From contig JAOQAP010000225.1 of NCBI GenBank assembly GCA_025963465.1, positions 74 through 64,073 on the forward strand: a stretch of 64,000 bases of DNA. The letters run 5' to 3'. This stretch comes from Flavipsychrobacter sp. (lineage in GTDB: Bacteria > Bacteroidota > Bacteroidia > Chitinophagales > Chitinophagaceae). The stretch's first letter is position 1. Each line of letters opens with the position of its first letter. Shown here piece after piece: positions 590-45,100 of the stretch. Under the pieces are notes generated by a model that saw only the letters and a list, made by a program, of their open reading frames with translations, did not search any database and had not been told where the DNA came from. A program made the position numbers and the translations under genes.

Positions 590-2812
590 TTAACGAATAA
601 GCAGGACATCTCCCTTTGATTCTTCTTTGTTACCTGTGAGGCACTTTGCTTTGAAGAAATAGTAATAGTTGCCCATATCGCATGGTATGCCATTAAAGGT
701 GCCGTCCCAGTACTGGCGAGGATCAGCGGTCTCAAATACTTCCTGTCCCCATCGGTTGTAAATAGCCAGCTTGTATTCGACCAGGTTACCATAAGATATA
801 ATACGGAAACCATCATTTACACCATCATTATTAGGTGTGAACGCATTGGGGTATGAGAATTTGCAGCAATACTGGATATCTTTATAACGGTAGGTAGCAG
901 AGTCTGCACATCCAAAAGAGTCAATCGCTTTGATCTGTATCAACACAGGTTCGGTGACCCGTATGTATGGCATATTTGCTGTATCAAAAAGCACCTGGTC
1001 CGCAGGTGTCCACGTATACGTGACACCTCCTGTAGCCCTAAGAGCAATGGTGTCACCTATACAAATTGTTTCCGGCTTGCTCGCAGCAAGCAATTCAGGT
1101 AGGGGTAGCGGATGGACTACCGCGCTGACAGGTACATTGGTTTTAATACACTGCCTGTATTGTTCTGTATAAGAGAAATGCTGTGTACCCACAGTTTTTG
1201 TATCAGGTATAGGAGGATAAAAAAGCAGGTCGCCATTAGAATAGTACCAGGTGATAATAGCTTCGGCGCCTATGGGTTCTATAATGATAGCTGCGGTAGG
1301 GCCGTTGATACAGTAGTTTTTCACCAAAGGTAACAGGGGCAGATCCCCGCTATCCGTAATGCCAATGGTGCTTGTACTCTTACAGAATTCATTTGAGCTG
1401 GTGACAACGCTATAAAAGCCTAAGGGCAGACTATCTACAATAGTACCTGTACTATCAATATAAGTTTTATAAACATCAGCACCTTGTGAAATGGTCACAG
1501 TGCGAGGTGCATAACCATAATTTAAATTATACTGCAATAACGCTTTGTGCAGGCATTGTGTGGAAGAGAGCAAAGTATAACTTAATACAGGGGGAGGCGC
1601 TACATTAATGGTATATGCTACGGTAGACCTGTTTGCCAAAGGGCAATGATCGTTGTTGATGTTGAGATAGAAGGTGTAAATGCCTGAGGGGATATTGCCT
1701 GTGGCCCAGTCGAAGGTGACTGAAGGGGAAGTAGAATTGTTGTTGATAATATTAAGGGTAGCGCCTGATGGTGTGTTGTTTGTTACCAAAGCAGTATTGT
1801 CGTTGTCAGGGTTATCAATGTTAATATTGAAAGTGAGGTGAGGCGTGCCGGCACAAATGTTGATAACATTATTTCCGGTAACAGTCCCGCCGGATACATT
1901 GTTTAACCTGGCTGTTGGCGGAACACCCTTACAGCCGTCAATAACAATAAATGTCATTTCGCGTTCGCTTGTACCGACAAGTACCCCTTTCCTGTATTCC
2001 GACACCTGGCACACAACCAATGCGTACTGAATAGCATCCGGTGTAAAGGATATTTGCCCGTTCAACGGGCTGAAAATAAACTTACCTGAGGTTGACAATG
2101 GTTCAGTGGCAGTATAAGGTGACGTATAGAACACATCAGTTTCTAAATTCCCGTCTCTGCCCGGTACAAGGGCAAATGCCAGCGAATCCCCATCAGGATC
2201 AATAGCGCCCTGACTATATTCTCCCTGCAAATTGATGCAATAATATGGCGTAGGAATGGTGGAATAAGCAGGTGAAGAATTGTCTTCAGCCAATGTATTA
2301 TCCAGCCTGGCTTTAAGCTCCATAATAGAGCTGTTATTGATAGGTTGTATGATGTTGGTTATATTACGGCTACGGCCTGCACCAGAATTGACACTGCCAA
2401 GCCCTCCCGGAAAAACAAACACCCAGTTTTTGGATCTGTGTGGAAGCGTTATCGTTTTGGAATACTTAAATCGTTTAACACCGGGTTGTGTGCCTCCATT
2501 ACATTTGGTATTATGTAACTCAGCTGCACATACCGGAGATACTTCAGTGCCGGCTTCTTCTACGTCAAGGTTGATCTGAGCGCCCTGGACGTTCCCGTCG
2601 TAAATTAATATATCGGGCCTTGCGTGATAGAGTGAATCAAATATTCCGGGGTCAGCGCCGCAATCGCCATATAGAGTGAGTGTGAGTTTATATGTGGTAC
2701 CTCCAATGTGTGTGTATAGCAACTCACCACCAAATATATGACTGGCAAAACTGTCAGGTCCTTTAAGAAGGATAAAGAACAGCAGGAATATTTTTAATGC
2801 TTTATTGTTCAT
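590..2812 (-). CDS. secreted protein with T9SS type B (gliding-motility-associated) C-terminal sorting domain, paralog 1 of 3
   Basis: 740-aa ORF with ATG start and signal peptide. N-terminus reads SHIFGGELLYTH. C-terminal ~90 aa (PNAFTPNNDGVNDGF...YNRWGQEVF...WDGTFNG...GDVLLIR) matches the type B CTD as I remember it. Only 32 nt downstream of paralog 2, so probably co-transcribed. Confidence 0.85.
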   Translation of the reverse strand: MNNKALKIFLLFFILLKGPDSFASHIFGGELLYTHIGGTTYKLTLTLYGDCGADPGIFDSLYHARPDILIYDGNVQGAQINLDVEEAGTEVSPVCAAELHNTKCNGGTQPGVKRFKYSKTITLPHRSKNWVFVFPGGLGSVNSGAGRSRNITNIIQPINNSSIMELKARLDNTLAEDNSSPAYSTIPTPYYCINLQGEYSQGAIDPDGDSLAFALVPGRDGNLETDVFYTSPYTATEPLSTSGKFIFSPLNGQISFTPDAIQYALVVCQVSEYRKGVLVGTSEREMTFIVIDGCKGVPPTARLNNVSGGTVTGNNVINICAGTPHLTFNINIDNPDNDNTALVTNNTPSGATLNIINNNSTSPSVTFDWATGNIPSGIYTFYLNINNDHCPLANRSTVAYTINVAPPPVLSYTLLSSTQCLHKALLQYNLNYGYAPRTVTISQGADVYKTYIDSTGTIVDSLPLGFYSVVTSSNEFCKSTSTIGITDSGDLPLLPLVKNYCINGPTAAIIIEPIGAEAIITWYYSNGDLLFYPPIPDTKTVGTQHFSYTEQYRQCIKTNVPVSAVVHPLPLPELLAASKPETICIGDTIALRATGGVTYTWTPADQVLFDTANMPYIRVTEPVLIQIKAIDSFGCADSATYRYKDIQYCCKFSYPNAFTPNNDGVNDGFRIISYGNLVEYKLAIYNRWGQEVFETADPRQYWDGTFNGIPCDMGNYYYFFKAKCLTGNKEESKGDVLLIR

Positions 2813-2844
2813 TTATATTACCTGGTCTTGTGAACTATTGTTTG

Positions 2845-5079
2845 TTATCGGATCAGGATAACATCGCCTTTTGATTCCTCTTTATTTCCCGTAAGGCATT
2901 TTGCCTTAAAATAGTATACATAGGTGCCAAGGTCACATGGTGTGCCATTCCATGTCCCGTCCCAGTAACGTAGCGGATCTGTGGTGTGAAATACCTCTAT
3001 ACCCCACCTGTTATAAATAAAGAGATCGTATTGTGTCAGATTGCCATAGGAGATTATCCGAAACCCATCATTTACCCCATCTTTATTTGGTGTAAATGCA
3101 TTAGGATAAGAGAAACGGCAACAATACTGAATGTCTTTGTAATCGTATACAATGGAATCGGCACAACCAAATGAGTCTATTGCTTTTAACTGCATAGAAA
3201 CCGGAACTGTGATCCTTGCATATGGCTTGCCGGCAGTATCGGAAAGTACCTGGTCGGCAGGCGTCCATACATAGGTTACACCCCCCGTGGCCCTGAGAGG
3301 GATAGTGTCTCCAAGGCAAATAGTTTCAGGCATACTTACGGCAAGTAGCTGAGGCTCCGGTAGCGCATGAACCGTAGCAGTGAGTGGTATTTTTGCAGAA
3401 ATACATTTTGCGTATTCTTCTATAAATGCATAATATTCTGATCCAATCACTTTAGTATCAGGGATAGGGGGGTAAAAGATAAGTCCACCTTTAGTGTCGA
3501 ACCAGGTGAATATCGCACCGGGACCTATAGGGTCAACACTGATAGGTACAGGGGTGCTGTTGATACAATAATTTTTTATGACAGGGGATAATGGCAGGTC
3601 GCCACTATCGCGCACAGATACCGGTATAGATGTGCTACACTGGGGGTTAGAGCTACATGAAACAATATAATCGCCAGTCGGCAGGCTATCAATTAGTGTA
3701 CCGGTGGAGTCGGTATATGTTTTATAGGTAGTGGTCCCATTCATTATGGTGATGGTCCTGGGGGTGTAACCATAATTCATGTGGTACTCCATAGTGGCTT
3801 TATGCACACATTGGGTAGGTGAGAGTAGCTTAGATGATATCTCCGGGAATGGTGTTACATTGATGGTGTAAGCCACTGTTGCTCTTGTAGCAAGCGGGCA
3901 GTGGTCATTCTGGATGGTAAGGTAAAAAGTGTATACCCCTATAGGAGTGCTGCCCGTAGACCATTCAAAAGTACCATGTGGCGAAGCGCTGCCATTGTCG
4001 TCTATGGAAAATGTGGCGCCGGCTGGTAATGCACTTGCACTGAATGTAGTTTTATCACCATCCGGGTTACTGATGCCGATACCAAAAGAAACGTGAGGGG
4101 TATTTACACATACATTTATTATGTTTCCGCCGGTTGCATTGCCCGATGCGACAGCTCCGCCTTCGTTTACCGTAAGTTTACTGGAAGGAGGTGTGCCCTG
4201 GCAGTTGCTAAGCACTACAATTGTCAATTCTCTTTCACTTGTGCCTATCAATATACCGTTCCTGTATTCAGATACTTTGCAGACAACCAATGCTTTCTGT
4301 GTGTTGGCGGGTGTAAAAGTTATCTGCCCGTTCAACTCATTGAAAAAGAAAGTATTGGGGTCCGTGTCCAATGGTTTTACCGCTGTAAACGGGAAAGTAT
4401 AATTAACAGAAGTGCCTCCATTATTAGCATCGGCCGCTGCCACCAGGCTGAATGCCAATGAATCTCCATCGGGATCAATAGCGCCATGGTTGTATTGTTG
4501 GGGCACCTTTACACAATAAAACGGAGTGGGTATAGAAGAGTATGCCGGTGAGGAGTTGTCTGAAACAAGGTTATTCAGATCGGCTTCCAGCTGAATAACG
4601 GAGCTTAGTGAGGCTGGTATTACATTGGAGATACTATTACTTCGCCCTGCCTGTGTGGCCGTGCCCATATTCCCTCTAAACAAAAATGCCCATTTCGCAG
4701 CCCTATACGGCAGTTTTACCGTGGCTGAATAGCTAAACCGCCGTACACCCTGTAATTTGCCACCTTTGCAGTTTGTACTATCTGCCTGTGCGGTGCAAAC
4801 CGGGGATACTTCGGTCCCCGATTCGTCTATTGTTAAAGAAAGGTCAGGCAACGTTGTGGTACCGTCGGTGATATAAATAACAGGAGAAGCTGTATACAGC
4901 GTATTAAAGATATCATAAGTGGCGCCACAATCACCATAAACAGTAAATGTAACTTTATAAACACTGTCTTTAATGTACGTGTATAGTAGTTCTCCGCCGA
5001 AAATATGGCTGGCAAAGCTATTTGTGCCCTGTACGAGCATGAATAATAATAAAAGTACCCTTATTAACTTTCTTCCCAC
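2845..5079 (-). CDS. secreted protein with T9SS type B C-terminal sorting domain, paralog 2 of 3
   Basis: 744-aa ORF. The start codon at 5079-5077 is GTG. Signal peptide and same N-terminal SHIFGGELLYTY and C-terminal PNAFTPNKDGVNDGF...YNRWGIEVF...WDGTWNG motifs. Confidence 0.85.
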   Translation of the reverse strand: MGRKLIRVLLLLFMLVQGTNSFASHIFGGELLYTYIKDSVYKVTFTVYGDCGATYDIFNTLYTASPVIYITDGTTTLPDLSLTIDESGTEVSPVCTAQADSTNCKGGKLQGVRRFSYSATVKLPYRAAKWAFLFRGNMGTATQAGRSNSISNVIPASLSSVIQLEADLNNLVSDNSSPAYSSIPTPFYCVKVPQQYNHGAIDPDGDSLAFSLVAAADANNGGTSVNYTFPFTAVKPLDTDPNTFFFNELNGQITFTPANTQKALVVCKVSEYRNGILIGTSERELTIVVLSNCQGTPPSSKLTVNEGGAVASGNATGGNIINVCVNTPHVSFGIGISNPDGDKTTFSASALPAGATFSIDDNGSASPHGTFEWSTGSTPIGVYTFYLTIQNDHCPLATRATVAYTINVTPFPEISSKLLSPTQCVHKATMEYHMNYGYTPRTITIMNGTTTYKTYTDSTGTLIDSLPTGDYIVSCSSNPQCSTSIPVSVRDSGDLPLSPVIKNYCINSTPVPISVDPIGPGAIFTWFDTKGGLIFYPPIPDTKVIGSEYYAFIEEYAKCISAKIPLTATVHALPEPQLLAVSMPETICLGDTIPLRATGGVTYVWTPADQVLSDTAGKPYARITVPVSMQLKAIDSFGCADSIVYDYKDIQYCCRFSYPNAFTPNKDGVNDGFRIISYGNLTQYDLFIYNRWGIEVFHTTDPLRYWDGTWNGTPCDLGTYVYYFKAKCLTGNKEESKGDVILIR

Positions 5080-5379: not shown

Positions 5380-7605
5380 TCAACGAATGAGCAGGACATC
5401 GCCTTTTGATTCTTCTTTATTACCGGCGAGGCAGTTTGCTTTGAAGTAGTAATAATAATTACCCATGTCGCATGGTATACCATTGAAGGTGCCGTCCCAA
5501 TATTGGCGCGGATCAGTTGTCTCGAATACTTCCTGTCCCCAACGATTGAAAATGACCAGGTTATATTGGGTGAGGTTGCCATAAGATACTATTTTGAATC
5601 CATCATTTACTCCATCCCTGTTTGGGGTGAATGCATTGGGATAGGAGAACTGACAGCAATACTGGATGTCTTTGTAATTATAAGTTACAGAATCGGAACA
5701 GCCAAATGAATCTATTGCTTTTACCTGTATTGCGACCGGAGTAGTTACTCTTATATATGGATGACCTGCAGGGTCAGAAAGTATGAGGTCTCTAGGTGTC
5801 CATGTATAAGTGACGCCACCTGTGGCCTGCAACATTATGGTATCACCCAGGCAAATAGTTTCCGGTTTGCTAGCCGCTAACAGCTCAGTGACAGGTGGCT
5901 GATGAACCGTGGTGGTAACGGGTATTTTCGCTGAGAGACACTGGTGGTATTGCTCTGTAAAATAATAATATTCAGATCCAGGCGCTTTAGTATCAGGTAT
6001 AGGTGGGTAATAAATAGGTGCCCCGGCGGGATCATACCACGTAATAATGGCGCCTGTGCCAATAGGTAAAATTTCAATAGGGCCGGTAGGGCCATTGATG
6101 CAATAGTCTTTTATTACGGGTGACAAAGGCAGGTCTCCGCTATCAGGTATTACAATAGCTGCTGATACTTTGCAAACCCCATTTGCGCTTGTGATCATGG
6201 TATATGGGCCCTGCGGTAAACTATCTATGATGGTGCCTGTACTGTCGGTATACGTTTTGTAGCTATCATTTCCCGACATAATAGTAAGGGTCCTTGGGGT
6301 ATAGCCATATTTCAGGTTGTACTGAACAAATGCTTTGTGCAGACACTGGGTAGGGGCAATGAGGTTGTAAGATAATTCAGGCTTTTGGGTAATGTTTATG
6401 GTGTAAGCTACTGTTTGCCGGTTAGCAATAGGGCAATGATCATTTTTTATAGTAATGTAAAATGTATAAATGCCGATAGGAATATTGCCGGTGACCCAGT
6501 GGAAGCTGGCATACGGATCGGTTGTGTTATCATTAATGATATCCAGTGTGGAAGACCCCGGCAATGTGCTTGTTTCGATGGTTGTAATATCTCTGTCAGG
6601 GTTGGCTAATTTGATACCAAAAGACAGGTCTTCAGTGCCGGCACAAACAGTGATTACGTTGGGCCCGGTGATAGCTCCACCCGAGACTGCATTCAATGAA
6701 GGTGTTGGAGGTATACCCTTGCAATCGTCCAGTACTACAAAGGTCAGTTCACGCTCACTGGTACCAATGAGTACACCTTTCCTGTACTCAGAGACCTTAC
6801 ATACCACAAGGGCATCCTGTATAATAGAAGGAACGAACGATATTTGTCCATTGATGGCGTTGAATTTAAAAGTGCCGGCATCAGTGGCTAATGGAAGTTC
6901 AGCAGAAAACGGGGGAAGATAGGAGATCGGCATTCCGGCGCTGTTGGCATCAATTGCCGGTACCATGCTGAATACAAGCGAGTCCCCGTCGGCATCAATT
7001 GCGCCCTGGTTATATTCCTGAGGTACCTTTACGCACGAGAACGGAGTAGGAATTGATGAGTATACCGGAGATGAGTTGTATTCGGTTGTATTGTCCAGGT
7101 AAGCTTCCAGTTGCATGAGTGTGCTGCTGCCTGGTAACGGGTTGAGCACATTAGTGATACTACCGCTTCTGCCTGCTGATCCGAAAGAGCCCATACCACC
7201 TTTGAATAAAAAGGTCCATTTCGTATCTGGATAGGGTAGGGTTATCGTGTCATCATAGATAAATCTACGAACCCCGGGCAGAGTGCCGCCGGGCGTACAT
7301 TTTGTATTGCCTATTTCAGCCTTACATACAGGTGATACATCGGTACCCCTTTCTATTATATTAAGTGTGAGTACCATTGGATTGATCCCGTCGGTAACAG
7401 TAACTGTGGGTGTGGCGTCATACAATGATTGAAATAAAGCTTCCGCAGCACCGCAATCGGCGTACAACGTAAGGTATACTCTATATGTGTCGCCTGAAAT
7501 ACGTGTATAAAGGAGCTCACCGCCAAAAATATGGCTGGCAAAGCTATTTGTACCCTGACCCAGGATGAATAGAAACAATAATATCGCAGAAAATTTTCTA
7601 CTCAC
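5380..7605 (-). CDS. secreted protein with T9SS type B C-terminal sorting domain, paralog 3 of 3
   Basis: 741-aa ORF. The start codon at 7605-7603 is GTG. Same conserved termini as the other two. Separated from paralog 2 by 300 nt. Confidence 0.85.
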   Translation of the reverse strand: MSRKFSAILLFLFILGQGTNSFASHIFGGELLYTRISGDTYRVYLTLYADCGAAEALFQSLYDATPTVTVTDGINPMVLTLNIIERGTDVSPVCKAEIGNTKCTPGGTLPGVRRFIYDDTITLPYPDTKWTFLFKGGMGSFGSAGRSGSITNVLNPLPGSSTLMQLEAYLDNTTEYNSSPVYSSIPTPFSCVKVPQEYNQGAIDADGDSLVFSMVPAIDANSAGMPISYLPPFSAELPLATDAGTFKFNAINGQISFVPSIIQDALVVCKVSEYRKGVLIGTSERELTFVVLDDCKGIPPTPSLNAVSGGAITGPNVITVCAGTEDLSFGIKLANPDRDITTIETSTLPGSSTLDIINDNTTDPYASFHWVTGNIPIGIYTFYITIKNDHCPIANRQTVAYTINITQKPELSYNLIAPTQCLHKAFVQYNLKYGYTPRTLTIMSGNDSYKTYTDSTGTIIDSLPQGPYTMITSANGVCKVSAAIVIPDSGDLPLSPVIKDYCINGPTGPIEILPIGTGAIITWYDPAGAPIYYPPIPDTKAPGSEYYYFTEQYHQCLSAKIPVTTTVHQPPVTELLAASKPETICLGDTIMLQATGGVTYTWTPRDLILSDPAGHPYIRVTTPVAIQVKAIDSFGCSDSVTYNYKDIQYCCQFSYPNAFTPNRDGVNDGFKIVSYGNLTQYNLVIFNRWGQEVFETTDPRQYWDGTFNGIPCDMGNYYYYFKANCLAGNKEESKGDVLLIR

Positions 7606-7812
7606 TTTGTATTATCTCAGATGCGTGAAGATAAAGGATACATATGTATACTATAATATTAATAAAAAATTGGCATTTATAGCATATCACCCGGAAATTG
7701 AAGAAAAAAATAGTAGACTATGTATGTATAAAAATGGTAAAAGCCGGGCATAGAGGGCTATTATTTTGGCAACTTCCCTACCTTGCAGCAAAAAACGAAA
7801 ACAATATATTTT

Positions 7813-8727
7813 ATGTCAGGAAAGATAAAAACAGTAACGGTAATAGGGTCAGGTACCATGGGCAATGGTATTTGCCATGTATTTGCCCAAAACGGGTTTG
7901 ATGTGCATATGATGGACATTAACCAAGGTGCACTTGATAAAGCGCTGGCTACAATAGGCAAGAACATGGATCGCCAGGTAGCTAAAGGCTCACTAACTGA
8001 AGAAGCGAAAAACGAAGCTGTAGGCCGCATAAAGACCTTTACGGATATGGCATCGGCTGTAAAAGAGGCTGACCTTGTAGTAGAAGCTGCTACTGAAAAC
8101 GTAGACCTGAAACTGAATATATTCCGCCAGCTGGACGAACATTGTCCGGCGCATTGTATACTCGCCAGCAATACTTCTTCCATATCTATTACCCGTATAG
8201 GCTCTGTGACCAAAAGAGCAAACAAAGTAATAGGTATGCATTTTATGAATCCTGTACCTGTTATGAAACTGGTGGAAGTGATCAATGGATATGCTACAGA
8301 TGCTGAAGTAACCAAAACAGTATATGAATTATCTGAACAACTGGGCAAGGTGCCCTGCGTAGCTAATGATTACCCGGGCTTTGTAGCCAACCGCATACTG
8401 ATGCCTATGATCAATGAGGCGATCATAACACTGCAGGAAGGCGTAGCGGGCGTGGCTGAGATAGATACTATCATGAAGCTTGGTATGGCACATCCTATGG
8501 GCCCATTACAACTTGCTGATTTTATTGGCCTTGATACCTGCCTTTCTATCCTGAATGTATTATATACCGGCATCGGTAATCCGAAATATGCACCGGCCAC
8601 GTTGCTGGTGAATATGGTGCAGGCAGGCAGACTTGGTGCAAAATCAGGTGAGGGTTTTTACAAGTACACAGCAGGCAGTAAAGACCTGGTAGTAAGCGAG
8701 AGCTTTGCAACTGTACAATGGAAATAA
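7813..8727 (+). CDS. hbd: 3-hydroxybutyryl-CoA / 3-hydroxyacyl-CoA dehydrogenase
   Basis: Rossmann motif VIGSGTMGNGI near the N-terminus and the family-typical FMNPVPVMKLVEVI and GFVANRIL segments. I prefer the ATG at 7813 (MSGKIKTVTVIG) to the ORF-track start at 7783. Confidence 0.85.
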   Translation: MSGKIKTVTVIGSGTMGNGICHVFAQNGFDVHMMDINQGALDKALATIGKNMDRQVAKGSLTEEAKNEAVGRIKTFTDMASAVKEADLVVEAATENVDLKLNIFRQLDEHCPAHCILASNTSSISITRIGSVTKRANKVIGMHFMNPVPVMKLVEVINGYATDAEVTKTVYELSEQLGKVPCVANDYPGFVANRILMPMINEAIITLQEGVAGVAEIDTIMKLGMAHPMGPLQLADFIGLDTCLSILNVLYTGIGNPKYAPATLLVNMVQAGRLGAKSGEGFYKYTAGSKDLVVSESFATVQWK

Positions 8728-26398: not shown

Positions 26399-26974
26399 TT
26401 GTCTGTAGCTTTGGCATATACCGTACCGGGTCAAACCAGTGAGTTGGAAACACTCATTAACGGATGCATGCGTAATGAGCGCAGTGCACAGGAGAAGTTA
26501 TACCGCCTTTTTTATCCCAGGATGATGGCGGTGGTGAAAAGATACATAGATCATGATGAGCAGGCAGAAGAGGTATTGAACAACGGATATTTAAGGGCAT
26601 TTCAGAAGATAGGGCAGTATAATTTCCAGGGTTCTTTCGAAGGTTGGCTGAGAAAAATAGTATTTCATGCGGTAGCAGACTATGTGAAGCAAAACACAAA
26701 GTATTCTAACCAGATATTACTAATAGAGAAAGACCAGCAGGTAGAGAATACCCACGCAGAGAAACTTTACTACGACCAGCTGTTGAAACTGGTGCAGGAA
26801 CTGCCGGATGCCACACGTAATGTGTTCAATATGTATGTGATGGAAGGATTTACACACAGGGAGATAAGCGAGATAGTAGGAATAAGTGAGGGGACATCGA
26901 AGTGGCACTTGTCTGAAGGACGAAAAATATTGAAAGAGAAGATAGAACGACTGGAATTGCATTTGAAAATATAA
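26399..26974 (+). CDS. ECF-type RNA polymerase sigma-70 family factor
   Basis: Region 2 (RSAQEKLYRLFYPRMMAVVKRY...AEEVLNNGYLRAFQKI) and region 4 HTH (FNMYVMEGFTHREISEIVGISEGTSKWHLSEGRKIL). The only in-frame start before region 2 is the TTG at 26399. Confidence 0.85.
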   Translation: MSVALAYTVPGQTSELETLINGCMRNERSAQEKLYRLFYPRMMAVVKRYIDHDEQAEEVLNNGYLRAFQKIGQYNFQGSFEGWLRKIVFHAVADYVKQNTKYSNQILLIEKDQQVENTHAEKLYYDQLLKLVQELPDATRNVFNMYVMEGFTHREISEIVGISEGTSKWHLSEGRKILKEKIERLELHLKI

Positions 26975-34544: not shown

Positions 34545-34572
34545 AGCCGGGCCATATGGTTCGGCTTTTTTG
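34545..34572 (+). terminator. rho-independent terminator after fbp
   Basis: GCCGGGCC-ATAT-GGTTCGGC hairpin followed by TTTTTT. Confidence 0.75.
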
Positions 34573-34623
34573 TTTGTAAGGATTGCAGTTGCAAGCGATT
34601 ACTTTCGGGATAATAAATGAGTG

Positions 34624-35139
34624 TTATTTATTGAGATGAATTACTTTGTAATAAGAGGAGTACGTAATGTTCGCAGTATTTAGTGGATCTAAACGAACAA
34701 TTCTCCTCATGACAAACTCCGAATCTGAAATGAAAGAAACTAATCCTTGTTTCAGCCCTCCCATCCCCATAGTATATATTGGATATAAATTTCCATTTGT
34801 GGTTGTATCCATAAAGCAAATCAATGGAATACAATCAAAGCATCGCACATGGCTTGATGTTCCATCGCTGTATTTATATGGTGTAGTAGCAATTGGAGTG
34901 ATACAGGTTAAACTTTCTCCTCCTGAACCTTTATAATATTCTTTGAAATCATCAAAACTACCATCAAAGAATAGACTATCGTTTGAGACGGAACAGCTGT
35001 CATTTTTACAAGATTTGTATTGCCACCATGTTTCCCCCATTATTTTTTCAATAGCCTTATCATACGAATGCCTTTGTTTCTGACAAAACGCCGATGTAGA
35101 GACTGTAATGAAAACTAGAAGGAAAATATATAATCGCAT
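34624..35139 (-). CDS. secreted hypothetical protein (distant paralog of 25701-26255)
   Basis: Start at ATG 35139 (MRLYIFLLVFITVSTSAFCQ), giving 171 aa. Motifs shared with the 25701-26255 product. Confidence 0.6.
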   Translation of the reverse strand: MRLYIFLLVFITVSTSAFCQKQRHSYDKAIEKIMGETWWQYKSCKNDSCSVSNDSLFFDGSFDDFKEYYKGSGGESLTCITPIATTPYKYSDGTSSHVRCFDCIPLICFMDTTTNGNLYPIYTMGMGGLKQGLVSFISDSEFVMRRIVRLDPLNTANITYSSYYKVIHLNK

Positions 35140-35143
35140 CCGA

Positions 35144-35151
35144 CAAAGATA
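35144..35151 (-). promoter_or_regulatory. candidate -7 promoter box TATCTTTG
   Basis: Exact TAnnTTTG match 4 nt upstream of ATG 35139, which implies a leaderless transcript. Confidence 0.35.
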
Positions 35152-35224
35152 AGAATGAACTATTGTAACATAGTAATAGCAACAAAGGAGCACTATTACT
35201 GTTAGGCTGCGTTATCAAGCTTAA

Positions 35225-36538
35225 TTAAAATACCCACTGCTGTGCCAAAAACACAAGTATACCTGCAGCAAAACCAAGCAATGCAAGGCCACCTATTTTT
35301 TTCAGGTACCAGCTGAAGCTGATGTCTTCCATGCCCATCACGGCTACGCCGGCTGCGGTGCCTATAATAAGTGCACTGCCGCCTGCACCGGTGGTAAGGG
35401 CCAGGAACTCCCAGAAAGGATGATCGGTAGGGTAGGTGGCAAGGTCATACATGCCCTGCGACGCGGCTACAAGGGGCACATTGTCTACCACTGCAGACAA
35501 TAGCCCCAAAGCGATACCGATGAGGTAGTCATTTTTTAGACAGTTACTTAACACTGTAGCCAGGCCTTTGAGCGCACCAAAGGATTGCAGGGCCGATACT
35601 GCCAGCAGTATGCCCATGAAGAAAAGAATGCTGGGTGTGTCCACCCGCTGCAGGGCACGGGCAACAGTGAATCGTTCAGCATAGGCCGCGTCTTTGTCTC
35701 TATGCAGAAAAGCGGTGATGAGCCACATAACACCCAACGCAAGCAGCATACCCATAAAGGGAGGCAGGTGTGTAAGCGTCTTGAACACCGGTACGAACAG
35801 CAAAAAGCCAATTCCTGCGAACAGCATGATGTTGCCATCCTTTCTTTCCACATCGGTGCACGGTGTTATGGTTGCAGGGCTTATATGCTGGCCCCTGAAC
35901 CGGTAAGCGATAATAAGGCAGGGCACAAGGCAAACAACCAGGCTGGGCAGGATAAGTTGTTTAATGATGTTCAACGCAGTTACCTGTCCGCCTATCCACA
36001 GCATGGTTGTGGTCACATCGCCCAGCGGCGACCATGCTCCACCGGCATTGGCGGCAATAACGATCATACCTGCAAACCAGAGTCTGTCTTCTTTTTCGTT
36101 CAGTAGCCTGGAGCATACCGATACCATGACAATGGCCGTGGTCAGGTTGTCGAGCAGGGCGGAGAGTAAAAAGGTCAGTATGGATATGGTGATCAGCAGC
36201 CTCGGCTTGGAGGTTGTTTTTATTTTTTGCGTAATGATGTCAAACCCGCTGTGCAGGTCTATCAGCTCTACAATGGCCATAGCGCCCAGCAGGAAGAAAA
36301 GGATAGATGCGATGTCTCCTGTGTGATGCAGCAGTTCTTCCGATGCTGTTTCTGTGACCGGGCTTTGTGTGATGTAGATCGTCCAGCAGAGCACACCGGT
36401 TACCAGGGCAGATGCCGCCTTGTTTATTTTGAGTGTATGCTCAAAAGCAATAGCTACATACCCGATGATAAAGACACAGACGATCAATACTAGCGCCATA
36501 ATAAATGCTCCTGTGAGAGCACCTGCAAAATACAACAT
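35225..36538 (-). CDS. nhaD: Na+/H+ antiporter NhaD-type (ArsB/NhaD permease superfamily)
   Basis: About 437-aa polytopic protein with IAFEHTLKINKAA near the N-terminus and a LLGAMAIVELID segment typical of NhaD. ATG 36538 preferred; the TTG at 36559 is an alternative. Confidence 0.75.
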   Translation of the reverse strand: MLYFAGALTGAFIMALVLIVCVFIIGYVAIAFEHTLKINKAASALVTGVLCWTIYITQSPVTETASEELLHHTGDIASILFFLLGAMAIVELIDLHSGFDIITQKIKTTSKPRLLITISILTFLLSALLDNLTTAIVMVSVCSRLLNEKEDRLWFAGMIVIAANAGGAWSPLGDVTTTMLWIGGQVTALNIIKQLILPSLVVCLVPCLIIAYRFRGQHISPATITPCTDVERKDGNIMLFAGIGFLLFVPVFKTLTHLPPFMGMLLALGVMWLITAFLHRDKDAAYAERFTVARALQRVDTPSILFFMGILLAVSALQSFGALKGLATVLSNCLKNDYLIGIALGLLSAVVDNVPLVAASQGMYDLATYPTDHPFWEFLALTTGAGGSALIIGTAAGVAVMGMEDISFSWYLKKIGGLALLGFAAGILVFLAQQWVF

Positions 36539-36613
36539 TAACCGCGGTTCTGTTCTCAAGCTCAGTGCTGCTTGTCTTCGTGATATAATAGCTACAGGGG
36601 GAACAAATGAATA

Positions 36614-36997
36614 GTAACAGTAGTAACAAAAAGCGTAACACCTTTGTTGTTACGTTACGTTATTACTTATCAATAAAATATTATACTATATATTATAATT
36701 AAGTATTTAATAGTAACGTAACAGTACTAAGTGTTACGAACTGTTACGTTGTTGTTACGTTTAGTACGTAACGTAACAAGGGGAGTGTTACGGATTGTTA
36801 CGTTATTCCGTAACAGTAACAAGTGTTACGAACTGTTACGTTGTTGTTACATTTAGTACGTAACGTAACAGGGGGAGTGTTACGGATTGTTACGATATTC
36901 CGTAACAGTAACAAGTGTTACGTACTGTTACGTTGTTGTTACGTTGTTACGTTTTTTTAAGTTGGTACGTAACACTATTATTGTTACGTTATTACTT
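36614..36997. repeat. dense GTTAC/GTAAC motif array filling the nhaD / T9SS-cargo divergent intergenic region
   Basis: Hand count gives 17 GTTAC and 14 GTAAC, mostly as TGTTACG/CGTAACA. Imperfect flanking direct repeats lie at 36634-36668 and 36968-36997. The AT-rich core 36661-36712 has 5 G/C in 52 nt. Confidence 0.95.
36717..36945. repeat. 92-bp tandem repeat, about 2.5 copies
   Basis: 36731-36822 versus 36823-36914 differ at 3 of 92 positions. A third, partial copy runs 36915 to about 36945. Confidence 0.95.
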
Positions 36998-37067
36998 TTG
37001 CCGGCTGTTAAACCAGAAATTAGTTACCTGACACTAACATTTTTGCAAAAAAATACGCCTAATTAGT

Positions 37068-37991
37068 ATGAAAACCTTAATTATGAAAAGACTGCTACGA
37101 TCGTTGATGTTGCTGATCATTTTTTGCTACGCTTACGTTCCCGCTGTTGCGCAGCTGACAGGAAGTAATCGCTTTACCTTTGAGGCTGATGATACTATAT
37201 GGATTAAGGTGATGCAGATAGATACCGTGAACTACCGCCACAATCAGTGGCAGGCAGGGAAACCACAGAAAACTGTTTTTAATGCCGCTTATGCAGGAAC
37301 TTATGCATTAGTAACAGATACCATCAATGCCTATGCACCCAACGATACATCTGTATTTACATTGACATTCCCCGGCAGAGTGCATCCATCCTCATATCCT
37401 TCCTGGCTGGTGCCATGGATCGATCATTTCTCTTTCTACTACCAGCTAAACATGGATACTACATCTTTTGCGAGGTTAGAGTTTTCACAGGACAGTGGTA
37501 AGACTTGGATAGACCTGCAGGATTCTACACCTTTTGCTGTCGTATGTGATACACTGCTAACAACAACGGGGTGGCATTCCTGGTCTATACGTTTTATTAG
37601 CCCTGGATACTATATGTATAGTGATTCTTTAAAGTTCAGGTTCACTTTTGTAAGTGGCAGTGACACTATGAGCCGTGATGGGTGGATGATAGATGAGATG
37701 TATCTGAACTACATGTTTGAGGGAATAAATGACATACATGCTACTCATGATGTTACACTATATCCTAACCCTGCCTGTGATCAGCTGACCATTATCTCTG
37801 GGGAGACCGCAAACAAGGATGGCAGAACCGCAAGCATTTATGATATTGCCGGACGGCTATGGTGTAAGTATTCTTTAACCGGCAATTCAACGACCATTTC
37901 TACGGCGGATATACCGTGTGGTGTGTACCAGTGTTTAATAGATGCAGGAGATGCGCAAATAGTCAACAAAAAATTAGTGATTGTCAGGTAA
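37068..37991 (+). CDS. secreted protein of unknown function with T9SS type A C-terminal domain
   Basis: 307 aa with a signal peptide. C-terminal LYPNPACDQLTII...GVYQCLIDAGDAQIVNKKLVIVR. Confidence 0.75.
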   Translation: MKTLIMKRLLRSLMLLIIFCYAYVPAVAQLTGSNRFTFEADDTIWIKVMQIDTVNYRHNQWQAGKPQKTVFNAAYAGTYALVTDTINAYAPNDTSVFTLTFPGRVHPSSYPSWLVPWIDHFSFYYQLNMDTTSFARLEFSQDSGKTWIDLQDSTPFAVVCDTLLTTTGWHSWSIRFISPGYYMYSDSLKFRFTFVSGSDTMSRDGWMIDEMYLNYMFEGINDIHATHDVTLYPNPACDQLTIISGETANKDGRTASIYDIAGRLWCKYSLTGNSTTISTADIPCGVYQCLIDAGDAQIVNKKLVIVR

Positions 37992-40091: not shown

Positions 40092-40730
40092 ATGAAACGA
40101 ATGATCATATTCCTGGCCGCGTGCGCTGTAACCGGAACACTGCATGCAACCGAATGGGAATTAAAAAAAGATAAAGACGGTATCAAAGTGTATACCGGCA
40201 CTGTAAGCAACTCAAATCTTAAAGCAGTAAGAGCGGTATTCACGCTGAATGCGAGTATGTCGCAGCTAACGGCACTGTTGCTGGATACTAAAGCCCACGA
40301 GCAATGGGTGTATAACACCAAAACATCTTACACAGTAAAAAAGGTAAGCGCCAACAACCTGGTATACTACTCAGAGGTAAGCATGCCATGGCCGCTGGCT
40401 AACAGGGATGTAGTAGTGGAAATGGCCATAACACAACAGCCGGTAACAAAGGTGCTGTATGTTACAGCCAACACGGCTCCGGGATCAGTGCCCGTAAGCA
40501 AGGATAAGGTGCGTGTGCCGCTCTCAAAAGTGAGTTGGGTGGTAACACCGATAGGCAAGAACAAACTAAGTGTGGAATATGTGGCAGAAGCAGACCCGGG
40601 AGGCGAGGTGCCGGCATGGCTGGTCAACTCTTTTACTACCAAAGGGCCTTTTGAAACATTTAAGAAACTAAAAGAGCTGGTAACGGCCCCTGCCTACAGG
40701 GATGTCCATTTCGACTTTGTGAAGGATTAA
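40092..40730 (+). CDS. START/Bet v1-like lipid-binding domain protein, secreted
   Basis: 212 aa with a signal peptide. WELKKDKDGIKVYT...PWPLANRDVV...AWLVN pattern typical of START domains. Confidence 0.65.
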   Translation: MKRMIIFLAACAVTGTLHATEWELKKDKDGIKVYTGTVSNSNLKAVRAVFTLNASMSQLTALLLDTKAHEQWVYNTKTSYTVKKVSANNLVYYSEVSMPWPLANRDVVVEMAITQQPVTKVLYVTANTAPGSVPVSKDKVRVPLSKVSWVVTPIGKNKLSVEYVAEADPGGEVPAWLVNSFTTKGPFETFKKLKELVTAPAYRDVHFDFVKD

Positions 40731-40785
40731 GCTCCTGTTTTTTTTGCCACAGGTAAATTGTAACTTTAAACTACAATAACTTGTT

Positions 40786-41061
40786 ATGGGAGCGCAAAAG
40801 GTTTGTGATCATATCAGCAATATTACGGAGCTTAAAGCGCCGAAAGTATATGAATGCGAAGAATGTATAAAAACAGGCAGCACCTGGATGCATCTGCGTA
40901 CCTGCCAGACCTGTGGCGTCACGTTGTGTTGCGACAATTCACCAAACAAGCATATGACAGCCCACTACCATAAGACAAAGCATCCGGTAGTAATATCTGC
41001 TGAGCCGGGAGAAAAATGGTTGTGGTGCTATCCCGATGAGCTGTTCGTAGATTATGACTAG
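40786..41061 (+). CDS. UBP-type zinc-finger protein
   Basis: 91 aa. C/H pattern CEEC...WMHLRTCQTCG...CCD...NKH...H..KTKHP typical of zf-UBP. Confidence 0.7.
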   Translation: MGAQKVCDHISNITELKAPKVYECEECIKTGSTWMHLRTCQTCGVTLCCDNSPNKHMTAHYHKTKHPVVISAEPGEKWLWCYPDELFVDYD

Positions 41062-41062
41062 G

Positions 41063-42001
41063 CTATATTTCTTTCAGCGGCACCACTTTCAGGTCTGCCA
41101 CATCCCAGCCGGATAGGGTAGCCCCTGCCATATAGCAGCTCTCCAAAAAATCAAGTAAGTCTTTATGAGGATCGGCAAACGATCTCAGATCATCATACAT
41201 CAGCAATGCCATAGGGCTGCCGTTAGATAGCTGCCACTTTGCTGCCCTTGGCGCTAATGGTTCTTTATCAAGACCACCAGGAGAAGGATAGGTGTAAGAA
41301 TAAAATGCGGCACCTCTCACGTTCTCATCGCCAGCCCAGAAGCCAAAGCTGATAAGCTCATGGCTGTAAGCATCCTTATTAGAGATGTTTGCCTCCGGCG
41401 ACATTGCAGGAGCCCTTCTTCCGCAGAAGCGCGTAACCACAAGGTCCATATGATGCCAGAAGAGCTGGACAGGACTTGTCTTGCCATAGAACCGTCCGCT
41501 GAATTCGGTGAACACTTCGCATGTCCACATCAGGATGCGCCAGAATTTCTGCACATACTCCGCATTATAGCTGTTATAGTCAGTAAGCTGTTCAAATGGA
41601 GTGGTCATAGGGTTCGCATCAGGCATGCCATAAGGATGGGGTATTATTCTTGCCTGTATATTCAGTTTATCCAGTATGGTAAACATCTTCTTATAAAGAT
41701 CAGCAACGCTTAGCCCGTCTGTAAGCGGGAAAGACTCATGAATGCCCTTGCTGGTCACCAGTTCCACCTTATGCTCCAGGAAGTTGAACTGGATATCGAA
41801 AGTAAAATCATTGGCAGGCATGGTATGGGTAATAAGCCCTTTTGCATTTACCAGGAAGGTAATGTTCCACCAGTGGTTCTTACGCGGCATCAGTGCCAGC
41901 TGTATCTTGCCAACTACCTGCAGGTAGAGGTTAAGGGTGGTCTTGCTTTGTTCCCATGCAGCAAGGTCAAGTGATGGTAAGGATGCTGTTTTCATAAGCA
42001 T
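41063..42001 (-). CDS. DUF5996-family protein
   Basis: 312 aa. The N-terminal W..SK.TL.LY.Q.VGKI.LAL.P..NHWW... pattern is as I remember for DUF5996 (Ava_C0101-like). Confidence 0.6.
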   Translation of the reverse strand: MLMKTASLPSLDLAAWEQSKTTLNLYLQVVGKIQLALMPRKNHWWNITFLVNAKGLITHTMPANDFTFDIQFNFLEHKVELVTSKGIHESFPLTDGLSVADLYKKMFTILDKLNIQARIIPHPYGMPDANPMTTPFEQLTDYNSYNAEYVQKFWRILMWTCEVFTEFSGRFYGKTSPVQLFWHHMDLVVTRFCGRRAPAMSPEANISNKDAYSHELISFGFWAGDENVRGAAFYSYTYPSPGGLDKEPLAPRAAKWQLSNGSPMALLMYDDLRSFADPHKDLLDFLESCYMAGATLSGWDVADLKVVPLKEI

Positions 42002-42017
42002 GAAGTTTACTACTAAA

Positions 42018-42025
42018 CAAATTTA
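42018..42025 (-). promoter_or_regulatory. candidate -7 promoter box TAAATTTG for the DUF5996 gene
   Basis: Exact TAnnTTTG match 16 nt upstream of ATG 42001. The GTTAC cluster starts 16 nt further upstream. Confidence 0.4.
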
Positions 42026-42040
42026 AGGCTATTTGTACAT

Positions 42041-42121
42041 AAAGCGTAACAGCTATAAGTAACAAAGCGTAACACTTGTTACGGTGTTACGCTTTGTTGT
42101 TATGTTACGTTCCTTGTTACG
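42041..42121. repeat. second GTTAC/GTAAC motif cluster with a 12-bp perfect inverted repeat
   Basis: 3 GTAAC and 4 GTTAC in 81 nt. AAAGCGTAACAC (42064-42075) and GTGTTACGCTTT (42084-42095) are exact reverse complements with an 8-nt spacer. The 11-mer AAAGCGTAACA is also at 42041-42051 and 36630-36640. Confidence 0.9.
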
Positions 42122-42122
42122 T

Positions 42123-45100
42123 TTAGCTGAACAGGAATTCGATATCGTCTTTGGTAAGTCGTTTCTGGAATGCGCTGTCGTCACTAACCAGGTCATTGGC
42201 CAGTGCGCGTTTATGCTCCTGTAGCTGCAGCATCTTTTCTTCCAGTGTATCCTTACAGATAAGGCGGTAGGCAAAGATGTTCTTGGTCTGTCCTATACGG
42301 TGCGTACGGTCAATGGCTTGTTGCTCTACAGCAGGGTTCCACCACGGATCTACTATGTATACATAGTCGGCTGCAGTAAGGTTAAGACCTATACCACCGG
42401 CTTTCAGCGATATCAGGAATACACGGCAGTCGTGGTCGTTCTGGAATGTATTGATCGCTGTCTCACGTTCTGCGGTAGTGCTGCTGCCATCAAAGTATAC
42501 ATGGCTTATGTCCTCTTCTTTCAGTTTTTGTTTGATGAGGCCCAGCATACCCAGGAACTGTGAGAACACCAGTACCTTATGGTCGCCCACATTCTCCGTT
42601 ATCTCGCGCGATAGTTCGTCGAGTTTTACAGAGTAGTTGTGGTAGCGCTCTTCTTCGTTCATGATAGCCGGAGAGTCGCATATCTGGCGCAGCTTGGTAA
42701 GGCCCTGCAGTATATGCATCTGCGAGCGTTCCATGCCTTTCTCTTCTATCATGCCCAGTATCTGTGAGCGGTATATATTGCGGTAAGCCTCGTAAATCTT
42801 GCGTTGTTCCACGCCCATCTCGCAATACAGGATCATCTCTGTCTTTTCAGGCAGGTCTTTTGCTACTTGCTCCTTGGTACGGCGCAGCAGGAAGGGGTAG
42901 GTGAGCTTACGCAATTGCAGCTTCACATCATCTTCCCTGAACTTATCTATAGGTGTTGCAAACTCGCTCATGAAAAATTCCCTGCTGCCCAGCATGCCGG
43001 GGTTCAGGAAGTTCATCTGTGCGTACAGGTCAAATGTATTGTTCTGTACCGGCGTACCGCTCAGCGCCAGGCGGTTTTTACTGTTCAGCAGCAAAGATGC
43101 CTTAGCTACCTGCGATTGCGGGTTCTTAATAGATTGCGACTCATCGAGCACCACATAGTCAAATGGGATCTCTTTGAACGTCTTTATATCGCCACGCATG
43201 GTACCATACGTGGTAATGATGATGTCAAAATTGGTATAACTTCCCGGGTCTATGTTACGCTTAGGCCCGTGGTGTATGATATGGGTAAGTTCCGGTGTGA
43301 ACTTCTGAATTTCCTTTTCCCAGTTATACATCAGCGTAGTAGGGCATACTACCAGGAAGCGGACATTGCCGTTCAGGTTCTTGTAATGCTGGAAGAAGGT
43401 AAGCGTCTGTATGGTTTTACCAAGCCCCATGTCATCAGCAAGTATACCGCCCCATCCGGCTTCGTTCAGGAACTTCAGCCATTGGAATCCCGCCAGCTGG
43501 TAAGGACGCAGAGTTGCCTTTAAATGATCAGGAGGAGCCAGCTCAGAATAATCGTTGCTTAATATTGTCTCCAGCTTTTCTTTCTTGGCTTCCAGCTCTT
43601 CCTGCAGGCCATCTTCGTCTATCTCCTTCAGCAGCTCATCCAGTACGCTGAAGTGGTATTTTTTCAGTCTTACTTTGCCGCCCTTGGCTTCACCCATCTT
43701 CAGCAGCAGGCTGTATTTTTTCAGCCAGTCTTCAGGCAGCAGGCCTATAGAGCCATCGCCCAGCTTTACGAAGTTTTGCTTTTGAGCGAGCGCTTTCTTT
43801 ACTTCTATTATAGATACACTCTGCTCACCGAATTTTAGCTCAACAGATGCGTCAAACCAATCTATACCACTGCTTACCTGGACTACTGTTTCCGGCTTAT
43901 GAGTGTTCACACGCAGGTTCTTCAATCCTTCAAAGCCCAGTATGTCCACATTGTTTTCCCGCATCAGTTCTGTGAAACGGTAGAACCAGTTGTTAGCCAG
44001 CACCGAAGTGCCGGGCAGGTAGTAAAACTTATCTTTTTTATTTAATTGTACATCAGTGTGCACTGTTGCCAGCAGCTCCATGAATTCCTGTTCTGCAGGT
44101 TCGTTGCGCTGCATGATCTTCACTATACCATCATGAGGCTGTATCACATCGCCAAAGTAGCCGGGACGTATCTCTACATCATGGTACATATACGCGGGCT
44201 GCAGTATCAGCGACTGATCACGCTCCTGCAGGTACAGGCGGAAGCCCGGCTTATCCTGCACCACATGTTCTATCAGCTCTTCAGAGAAATGGACATGTAC
44301 TATATCGGCCCATTTCATCACTTTCTCTTTCAGGAAGTCAGGCCATTTGGCTTTAGTTATTGCCATTTTACCATTGGCAGGAAACGACTCAGCAAGCTGT
44401 ATCTCCTGCTGGCTGCCTACGCAGCATATGTGTCCATTAGATACCAGTAGCGCAGAGTTAAGAAATGTAACCTCGCTTACCGGCACAGAGTTGTTCTCTA
44501 TGATCCATTCCAGCGTCAGGCTATAGCCTTTTGTTTCCTTGCGTGCTATCAGCTGCGGGTGTACAGGCTTTTCAGAATACTCTACCTGCTCTATGGTTGT
44601 TGAAGAAAGCGCTTTGCCCTTCTTCTTGATATATGTAAAATGATGTGCCGAATAACGGTCTAATAATTTCTGGTATTTAGGCAGCAGGTATTCCCATACC
44701 TGTTCCTTTACTTCTTCTTCCGGGGTGTCTTTCAGCACACTGTCATAATCATGAAGGAAATCACCGAATGGCAGGTTCTTCTTCAGGTATTTCAGTAGTT
44801 CATCCGGCAGGAACTTACGCACAACGGGCAGCAGGTCACGGTCTTCTACTTTGTATCGTGTAGGGTTCACGTATTGTGCCAGTTCCAGCTTGTCTATGCC
44901 GCTTATGAACTTCCTGTCAGCCTCATCGGGCGTGCCGGAAACCAGCAATACATCTACAAAAGGGAAAGCCTTTACATCCGGGTCTATTACTATACCCAAC
45001 CTCTTCTCTTCTATAGGTGCAGGTGCCGCGGCTTCCGCCGCAGGAATCTTTGGAATAACACTCTGTTTGGATTCCAGCTTTTTAATAGATGGATCCAGTA

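Follow-up and report, generated by a model that had tools for sequence, protein, structure and literature searches.

The intergenic DNA between a gene for an NhaD-type Na+/H+ antiporter (nhaD) and one for a cargo protein of the type IX secretion system (T9SS), in a metagenome-assembled genome (MAG) of Flavipsychrobacter sp. (Chitinophagaceae), is filled with an array of the heptamer TGTTACG and its reverse complement CGTAACA, and arrays of the same heptamer recur in viral and metagenomic contigs next to replication initiator genes. From these sequence comparisons we give about an even chance to the reading that this DNA is an orphan array of iterons, recently amplified and of an origin type widespread in mobile elements, that would act only in trans. 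The window, i.e. the whole stretch of 64,000 nucleotides analysed here, is nearly the entire 64,074-bp contig (JAOQAP010000225.1), and these 64 kb are the part of the MAG that was examined. It is ordinary chromosomal DNA of this MAG: its annotated genes are chromosomal ones (among them those for fructose-1,6-bisphosphatase [FBPase], thioredoxin, topoisomerase, proline dehydrogenase, ATP-binding cassette [ABC] transporter components and many T9SS cargo proteins), and no replication initiator, partition, integrase or transposase gene is among them.

The initial annotation counted 17 GTTAC and 14 GTAAC sites between 36614 and 36997, and this count is exact; the density is far above chance, as it proposed, with its expectation of about one site now refined to 0.84 per 384 bp under the window background (Poisson P ~2e-37). 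Twenty-two of the 31 sites are full heptamers (15 TGTTACG, 7 CGTAACA), the extended consensus is T-GTTAC-G-T-T, and the sites lie on both strands, 5 to 15 bp apart. Outside this main array and a second, smaller cluster described below, the heptamer occurs eight times in the window, always within coding regions, against a chance expectation of ~7.8 (hand estimate).

Most of the array is a tandem repeat. Tandem Repeats Finder reports a period of 92 bp and 2.5 copies over 36717-36945 with 94% matches, in agreement with the unit described earlier, and the copies at 36731-36822 and 36823-36914 differ at precisely three positions, as claimed, one of which converts TGTTACG to TGTTACA; overall, 3-5 positions differ between copies. 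Heptamers stay intact throughout a unit, and it is the intervening spacers that vary. In its first half, each unit has the order CGTAACA-N8-TGTTACG-N3-TGTTACG-N4-TGTTACG, an 8/3/4 arrangement found three times, and the site list bears out both the 10- and 11-bp spacing of same-strand TGTTACG copies and the CGTAACA-N8-TGTTACG pairs at 36717, 36809 and 36901. By computation the CGTAACA-N7/8-TGTTACG pairs form hairpins, and the single-stranded DNA fold of the region is strong (z = -6.2), a value that is non-discriminating because any cluster of inverted sites would give a strong fold. As the contig comes from a short-read MAG, the 92-bp unit could in reality be present in another number of copies.

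The direct repeats proposed to flank the array (36634-36668 and 36968-36997) were recovered, with 88% identity over 24 nt plus an identical 15-mer and a 5-bp indel. The AT-rich stretch at 36661-36712 is as exceptional as had been suggested, with four rather than five G/C in its 52 nt: it is the lowest-GC stretch of that length in the 64 kb, and ~0.01% of such stretches have five or fewer G/C. The core is bracketed by GTTACGTTACG on its left and GTAACGTAACA on its right, and the iterons of the two sides are therefore oppositely directed; the core is a candidate DNA-unwinding element.

Heptamer arrays beside replication initiator genes

A pattern matching both clusters of the window, CGTAACA-N1-9-TGTTACG-N1-5-TGTTACG, was scanned in the viral contigs of IMG/VR. 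This inverted-plus-direct pattern matched 80 stretches, and three composition-matched scrambled heptamers placed in the same pattern matched 1, 4 and 7, i.e. the true heptamer arrangement is 11- to 80-fold above the controls in viral contigs. Three same-strand copies at 10-11 bp pitch occur in at least 120 viral stretches. Because every comparison locus came from a search for the heptamer, the association statistics describe arrays of TGTTACG, not iteron arrays generally. After clustering, the viral and metagenome loci gave 67 sequence-distinct arrays among the matches listed, on contigs of 28-68% GC, and in 41 of these 67 one protein family adjoins the array, the median gap being 8 bp. The family has Prim-Pol, PriCT and AAA_25 (RepA/DnaB-like) helicase domains, and the array mostly starts between -5 and +20 bp from the stop codon of its gene. 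At a number of loci (L128, L161, L197, L204, L260, L298, L318 and others) the array begins 4-5 bp before the listed end of the open reading frame (ORF). In many Prim-Pol/AAA_25 families the stop codon appears, from the coordinates, to lie inside the first iteron, as the TAA of CG-TAA-CA.

Arrays of the heptamer also accompany initiators of other kinds: (i) in L248 and L143 a Phage_rep_org_N replisome-organiser gene contains the array, and in L248 the next genes encode a DnaC-like helicase loader and a single-stranded DNA-binding protein; (ii) in L234 it lies 25 bp after a D5_N/DUF5906 helicase gene; (iii) in L166 it is at the 3' end of a gene whose product terminates in a winged-helix domain. 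Together with the Prim-Pol loci, these four put heptamer arrays at the origin position of no fewer than three unrelated initiator architectures. The phased-triple set, which was ascertained independently, contains 56 arrays of decidable context among the matches listed, 47 of them initiator-linked (41 organiser-type, 4 Prim-Pol/AAA_25 and 2 D5-type). A few matches to the pattern are coding Val-Thr repeats, because GTT-ACG encodes Val-Thr, and a few others are plain tandem repeats. In annotated phage and plasmid collections the initiator was matched only by its N-terminal Prim-Pol or its ATPase, with no DNA match to the array. Every literature match to the heptamer that was checked was the 16S primer 1492R, and no description of one heptamer marking origin-position arrays of several initiator architectures was found in the searchable literature; this iteron-origin type is widespread and apparently undescribed.

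Two linked loci have additional peculiarities. On contig L154, two modules of initiator gene plus array (2271-4835 and 6101-8665) stand in tandem with 92.8% identity; that L154 is a minimal circular plasmid was considered and rejected, the ~93% identical modules being tandem and not an assembly wrap-around. In L298 a second GTTACG-rich cluster (8304-8353) lies ~1.7 kb downstream of the initiator-linked array, within an ORF of 193 aa. There it codes for Val-Thr repeats, and it may be either just a coding repeat or another iteron cluster within a gene; similar sites occur in L249, L258, L287 and others of a freshwater phage family.

Over 370 sites in 35 initiator-linked arrays the core is T(83%)-GTTAC-G(92%). 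These arrays have mixed orientations, overlapping 5-bp doublets and a peak of same-strand spacing at 8-10 bp, and an AT-rich dip is usually found within 100-200 bp. The window array shares the core consensus and the doublets with them, and its mixed orientation, with a pitch of 8-11 bp, recurs in arrays of dozens of unrelated phage or plasmid-like contigs. The 8/3/4 arrangement of its unit has an exact counterpart, with the same order, orientations and spacings, in the array of the organiser-type phage L248, and in one phage family only; with ~55 distinct arrangements sampled, we put the chance that such an exact-spacing match is coincidental at roughly 5-10%.

A conserved C-terminal segment is present in about half of the Prim-Pol family and can be written as ..RI..LL..G..T.KEIAE.L...VRTTLNR.K..F.K..G..WGL. 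It is modelled as three helices and a beta-hairpin (predicted local distance difference test, pLDDT, 87-89), and structurally it best matches winged-helix DNA-binding proteins (ArsR, MarR and Z-alpha types), with weak E-values (at least 0.07). From this model the segment is a plausible reader of TGTTACG. A protein-database search with the winged-helix alignment returned seven fragments only.

A second array, a close relative and orphan arrays elsewhere

The window holds a second heptamer cluster, absent from the initial annotation, with 7 GTTAC/GTAAC sites in 78 bp (Table 1). Within it, AAAGCGTAACAC and GTGTTACGCTTT form a perfect inverted repeat of 12 bp (RNA fold z = -3.8), which could double as the terminator hairpin of the neighbouring SNF2 helicase gene. 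An Rfam scan gave only two sub-threshold matches to microRNA models, both at the hairpin of this cluster (27.7 and 21.6 bits, the cut-offs being 89 and 90).

The window has a close syntenic relative in contig L125 (FBPase 91%, SNF2 90% and ABC permease 93% identity; DNA ~81% over 7 kb), on which there is no TGTTACG cluster, both window arrays being absent. The DNA homology ends ~48 bp past FBPase and restarts exactly at the SNF2 stop codon; beside the second array it stops at 42124. Each array is therefore at one edge of a block absent from L125, namely hyp189-nhaD-array 1 and START-hyp91-DUF5996-array 2, where hyp189 is a 189-aa ORF. A tblastn search of the nhaD and hyp189 block against L125 found no match, and the genes between the two arrays are chromosomal and conserved in L125. 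The blocks that are extra in the window relative to L125 span 34572-37000 and 40092-42122, each ending in a TGTTACG array; the first slot is occupied in L125 by extra T9SS cargo genes and an HTH_23 gene, and the order of a methyltransferase and a desaturase gene is swapped between the two contigs. Upstream of three nhaD homologs (78-79% identity) there was neither a motif cluster nor a common gene neighbourhood, so that the comparison with relatives proposed in the initial annotation did not reveal a conserved array upstream of nhaD. The arrays are young and specific to the lineage of the window: they are absent from L125 and lie at block edges, and the main one has grown by 92-bp tandem duplication.

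We also scanned a genome collection for three same-strand TGTTACG with loose gaps; the matches listed were mostly unrelated tandem or coding repeats, with few Bacteroidota examples. Among the latter, orphan arrays were found in Alistipes in the purL/guaB and the oxaloacetate decarboxylase/radical-SAM intergenic regions, in Sediminibacterium upstream of a TonB-dependent receptor gene, and also in Cytophagales, and the metagenome contig L126 carries one too; in Alistipes L068, by contrast, the array is just upstream of an AAA_25 gene. Some of these loci are distinctive. In a Cytophagales MAG (L057, 3743-3829), the CGTAACAC octamer is repeated eleven times in perfect tandem, ~190 bp downstream from the gene for a Na+/sulfate symporter (CitMHS-related). 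Here the array consists of direct repeats alone, and its neighbour is again a transporter from the superfamily to which nhaD belongs. Two Prevotellaceae MAGs (L007, 339-402; L107, 7502-7565) have the array and its left flank in common and an entirely different right side, and this array therefore sits at a junction of conserved and variable DNA. On L126, a Bacteroidota-like contig, an orphan array (1230-1310) lies 226 bp from a gene (309-1136) resembling those for tyrosine transposases associated with repetitive extragenic palindromic (REP) sequences, known as RAYTs. This gene was called by the NCBIfam profile REP_Tyr_transpos (E = 1.3e-16; 60.8 bits, below the cut-off of 80), and the motif flanks it on one side only. 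A GGGATTT tandem repeat separates gene and array on L126, and a T9SS cargo gene follows downstream. No RAYT-like homologs were found in the window or at the other array-bearing loci.

Possible roles of the window array

Compared with iteron origins, the window has the multiple short iterons in a compact non-coding stretch, with the T-GTTAC-G core of the linked arrays, and, in its main array, the AT-rich region between opposed iterons. A cognate initiator gene containing the array or just upstream of it is lacking, the flanks being nhaD and T9SS cargo, and the 64 kb contain no homologs of the Prim-Pol/AAA_25 family, its C-terminal domain, the organisers or the D5-type initiators. In the linked elements, the winged-helix domain of the initiator would read the heptamers, oligomerise and open the adjacent AT-rich DNA, as established for the Rep of the Staphylococcus pathogenicity islands (SaPIs). 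The window array would be unable to fire alone, because no such initiator is encoded within 64 kb, and would act only when an element encoding a TGTTACG-reading initiator is present. Its ~31 sites would then soak up or handcuff the initiator of an incoming or resident element and interfere with its replication; alternatively, the array would be fired by that initiator, with the neighbouring genes amplified. The Bacteroidetes-type -7 promoter consensus is TAnnTTTG, and because boxes of this type edge both arrays, at 36993 (+) and 42018 (-), a bound protein would also cover promoters or affect flanking transcription.

Several observations weigh against an orphan mobile-element origin. What links it to origins is a 7-bp word in common and a layout that is similar without being the same throughout: same-strand copies are 10-11 bp apart in the window, their spacing in the Prim-Pol-linked set peaks at 8-10 bp, and the long AT core of the window lies between TGTTACG...CGTAACA, the reverse of several linked origins, which place the AT spacer between CGTAACA...TGTTACG. 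The winged-helix profile detected no DNA-binding part in the organiser, D5-type or other initiators, and because these divergent types have no detectable common DNA-binding domain, the reader of the heptamer may be something other than the initiator. The orphan arrays that recur between housekeeping genes of Bacteroidota could equally mean that a host protein reads them. Finally, an initiator may be encoded elsewhere in the genome, and the motif may be far commoner genome-wide.

The strongest rival is indeed a host protein. A chromosomal regulator, perhaps related to the winged-helix domains of mobile elements and domesticated by the host, would bind TGTTACG cooperatively and control the promoters of nhaD, the T9SS cargo gene and the DUF5996 gene next to the second array. 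Both arrays fill promoter-bearing intergenic regions with the two TAnnTTTG boxes at their edges, the motif is at two separate genes within 64 kb as in a regulon, and the orphan arrays of Alistipes, Sediminibacterium, Cytophagales and L126 stand upstream of ordinary genes. Operators, however, usually have far fewer sites than 31; there is no conserved regulon, because the NhaD homologs and L125 are without such sites; neither array has a candidate regulator next to it; and the motif elsewhere is mainly in the context of replication origins. We consider such a landing pad unlikely, though no other alternative is as probable. (OmpR/PhoB-type or LytTR response-regulator boxes had also been considered, and were dropped after the association with replication genes; no such regulator is near either array.) Next in probability, and likewise on the unlikely side, is a functionless relic: remnants of plasmid or phage origins that arrived with the lineage-specific genes and were expanded by replication slippage or unequal crossing-over. 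This would fit the position of each array at the edge of an L125-absent block, the lack of an initiator in the window and the near-identical 92-bp copies, which point to a recent mechanical amplification. It fits less well with the heptamers being kept within the unit while spacers differ, with the recurrence of similar orphans in several Bacteroidota lineages, and with the window itself, where no initiator pseudogenes or remnants of integrases or transposases were found.

It is quite improbable that the region is a dispersed palindromic element like REP sequences or bacterial interspersed mosaic elements (BIMEs), mobilised by a RAYT and locally amplified. The CGTAACA-N7/8-TGTTACG hairpins, the strong single-stranded fold, the two intergenic clusters in 64 kb and the sub-threshold RAYT-like gene of L126 would all suit such an element. 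What is conserved, however, is a 7-nt word in variable spacing and orientation and not a 20-40 nt palindrome, single heptamers in the window, which lie inside genes, are no commoner than chance, the one RAYT-like gene has the motif on one side and no counterpart in the window or at other array loci, and most arrays elsewhere are tied to replication initiators. Traits of miniature inverted-repeat transposable elements (MITEs) were not seen either, the ends of the region being direct, not inverted, ~30-bp copies with no flanking duplication detectable by eye. The initial annotation had named a high-copy MITE- or REP-like element, or an equal motif density in most intergenic regions, as what would speak against its proposal; within the window neither was observed. 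Least probable of all, and largely refuted, is a cis-acting origin or centromere of the replicon itself (oriC, the oriV of a plasmid or chromid, or a parC-type site). Iterons with an AT-rich core are a classical origin layout, and short phased repeat arrays, such as these, are also found in parC-type centromeres. Against this, the array cannot be the origin or centromere of its own DNA because there are no initiator or par genes, skew switch, DnaA boxes or parS: GC skew is positive throughout, also to either side of 36.7 kb, where cumulative skew climbs steadily; DnaA boxes (TTATCCACA, up to one mismatch) number 21 in the window against 20.2 expected, with none between 36001 and 39558; no parS-like site was found near the array; and no rep, dnaA, parA/B or parM/R gene is annotated in the window. 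The close syntenic relative L125 is moreover without the array. A chromosomal oriC was thus rejected on GC skew and DnaA boxes, and a parS/centromere on the lack of par genes and of a parS-like site in the window. Of the three readings left open by the initial annotation, the comparison favours iteron-origin architecture, in a form that does not work in cis, and a centromere is unsupported.

An orphan iteron array can be compared with several known systems. The C-terminal winged-helix domain of SaPI Rep reads 5-6-nt iterons directly 3' of rep, the SaPI ori has an AT-rich centre with at least two iterons on each side in opposite directions, and in SaPI5 the primase is fused to Rep (PMC9371898). 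The TGTTACG arrays beside Prim-Pol/AAA_25 genes reproduce this Pri-Rep-ori layout, and the window array has its iteron/AT core/iteron part. TGTTACG differs in being common to many unrelated elements, whereas SaPI Reps each bind their own cognate origin (PMC9371898). Furthermore, the helicase of the linked family is AAA_25 and not an SF3/MCM-type ATPase as in SaPI Reps, and the window has neither a rep nor a pri gene and ~31 sites, versus 6-12 in SaPIs. In lambdoid and SPP1-like phages (lambda O and ori-lambda; SPP1 gene 38 replisome organiser), the origin is inside the initiator gene, as is the TGTTACG cluster within the replisome-organiser genes of L248 and L143; unlike these, the window array lies in non-coding DNA, and no organiser gene accompanies it. 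The primase-helicase of satellite phage P4 reads, through a C-terminal DNA-binding domain, the short iteron TGTTCACC in both ori and crr, which are several kb apart, crr being built from long direct repeats. The two window clusters, 5 kb apart and one of them built from 92-bp repeats, recall this arrangement, but the iteron word is another one, and the P4 initiator is encoded between its sites whereas the intervening genes of the window are chromosomal. The similarity to REP/BIME sequences with their RAYTs extends to intergenic, hairpin-forming, clustered repeats and the RAYT-like gene near the L126 array, and ends at the length of the conserved unit, the lack of a RAYT in the window and the association of the motif mainly with replication genes.

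Extra initiator-binding arrays off the origin are known from P1 incA and E. coli datA, where they titrate or handcuff the initiator and serve their own replicon. In phage-encoded resistance (Per), a phage origin region cloned in the host blocks the accumulation of infecting phage DNA, an effect that depends on copy number (PMC6356513). The origin regions for which Per was described were cloned or borne by prophages, and the window array is chromosomal. We know of no natural chromosomal decoy against foreign initiators. It is conceivable by analogy, though doubtful and in our view less probable than a relic, that the array is such a decoy origin, titrating or handcuffing phage and plasmid initiators; the 92-bp amplification would then be an evolutionary response to the pressure from such elements, TGTTACG a near-universal iteron read by several initiator architectures, and the Bacteroidota orphans a form of defence. 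If true, this would be a principle of defence or interference resting on DNA alone. Iterons are usually regarded as private to one replicon and its initiator, and here one heptamer is found at three or more initiator architectures; initiator-less origin-like arrays among housekeeping genes raise the question of whether orphan origins serve as sinks or hijackers of invaders' replication proteins. Even if the window array is a relic, the heptamer and the initiator families would be usable for predicting origins in uncultured phages and plasmids.

Feature coordinates and neighbouring genes

The features of both arrays and of the blocks around them are collected in Table 1. Pfam matches agree with the neighbours named in the initial annotation, a CitMHS/NhaD transporter on the minus strand and a T9SS sorting-domain (Por_Secre_tail) protein on the plus strand. 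No rep, par or regulator gene is beside the array, as it had stated, nor any rep or par gene anywhere in the 64 kb; the only regulator-type gene found in the window encodes an extracytoplasmic function (ECF) sigma factor (26399-26974). The real start of nhaD is probably at 36538, because the database copy of the protein has 437 aa.

Table 1. Array components, putative promoter boxes and flanking genes in the window
Feature	Position	Strand	Description
hyp189 (189-aa ORF)	34624-35193		Forms L125-absent block with nhaD
NhaD-type Na+/H+ antiporter gene (CitMHS)	35225..36559	-	Pfam; 100% identity to database protein P0001; divergent from array
Left iteron block	36614..36660	.	5 GTTAC/GTAAC sites (36614-, 36623-, 36635-, 36649+, 36654+); inverted pair CGTAACAC-N6-TGTTACG and overlapping doublet GTTACGTTACG abutting the AT-rich core; direct-repeat families D4, D6
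Terminator-like hairpin	36654-36634		In left iteron block
Inverted repeat I1	36654-36685 with 36691-36722		Spans AT-rich core
AT-rich core	36661..36712	.	4 G/C in 52 nt; GTTACGTTACG on left, GTAACGTAACA on right
Main iteron block	36713..36952	.	24 sites; 92-bp unit x2.5 (36717-36945), 8 sites per full unit; families D1-D3
Right terminal copy of ~30-bp flanking direct repeat	36968..37000	.	CGTAACAC-N6-TGTTACG-TTATTACTT; families D4, D6
Putative -7 promoter box TACTTTTG	36993-37000	+	TAnnTTTG match; overlaps right terminal repeat, faces T9SS cargo gene
T9SS cargo gene (Por_Secre_tail)	37068..37991	+	Pfam; 100% identity to P0121; other side of array
START-hyp91-DUF5996 block	40092-42001		Absent from L125 (synteny comparison)
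DUF5996 gene	41063..42001	-	Pfam; directly downstream of second array
Putative -7 box TAAATTTG	42018	-	TAnnTTTG match; second array just upstream of box
Second array	42045..42122	.	Between SNF2 helicase stop codon and DUF5996 gene; ~5 kb from main array

T9SS cargo genes, recognised by Por_Secre_tail or CHU_C domains, are unusually frequent on the contig (590-7605, 10432-11850, 12670-16485, 17211-19475, 37068-37991 and 55486-56931), and among their products are a C10 peptidase, a reprolysin-like metallopeptidase and a DUF7948 protein of 1271 aa.

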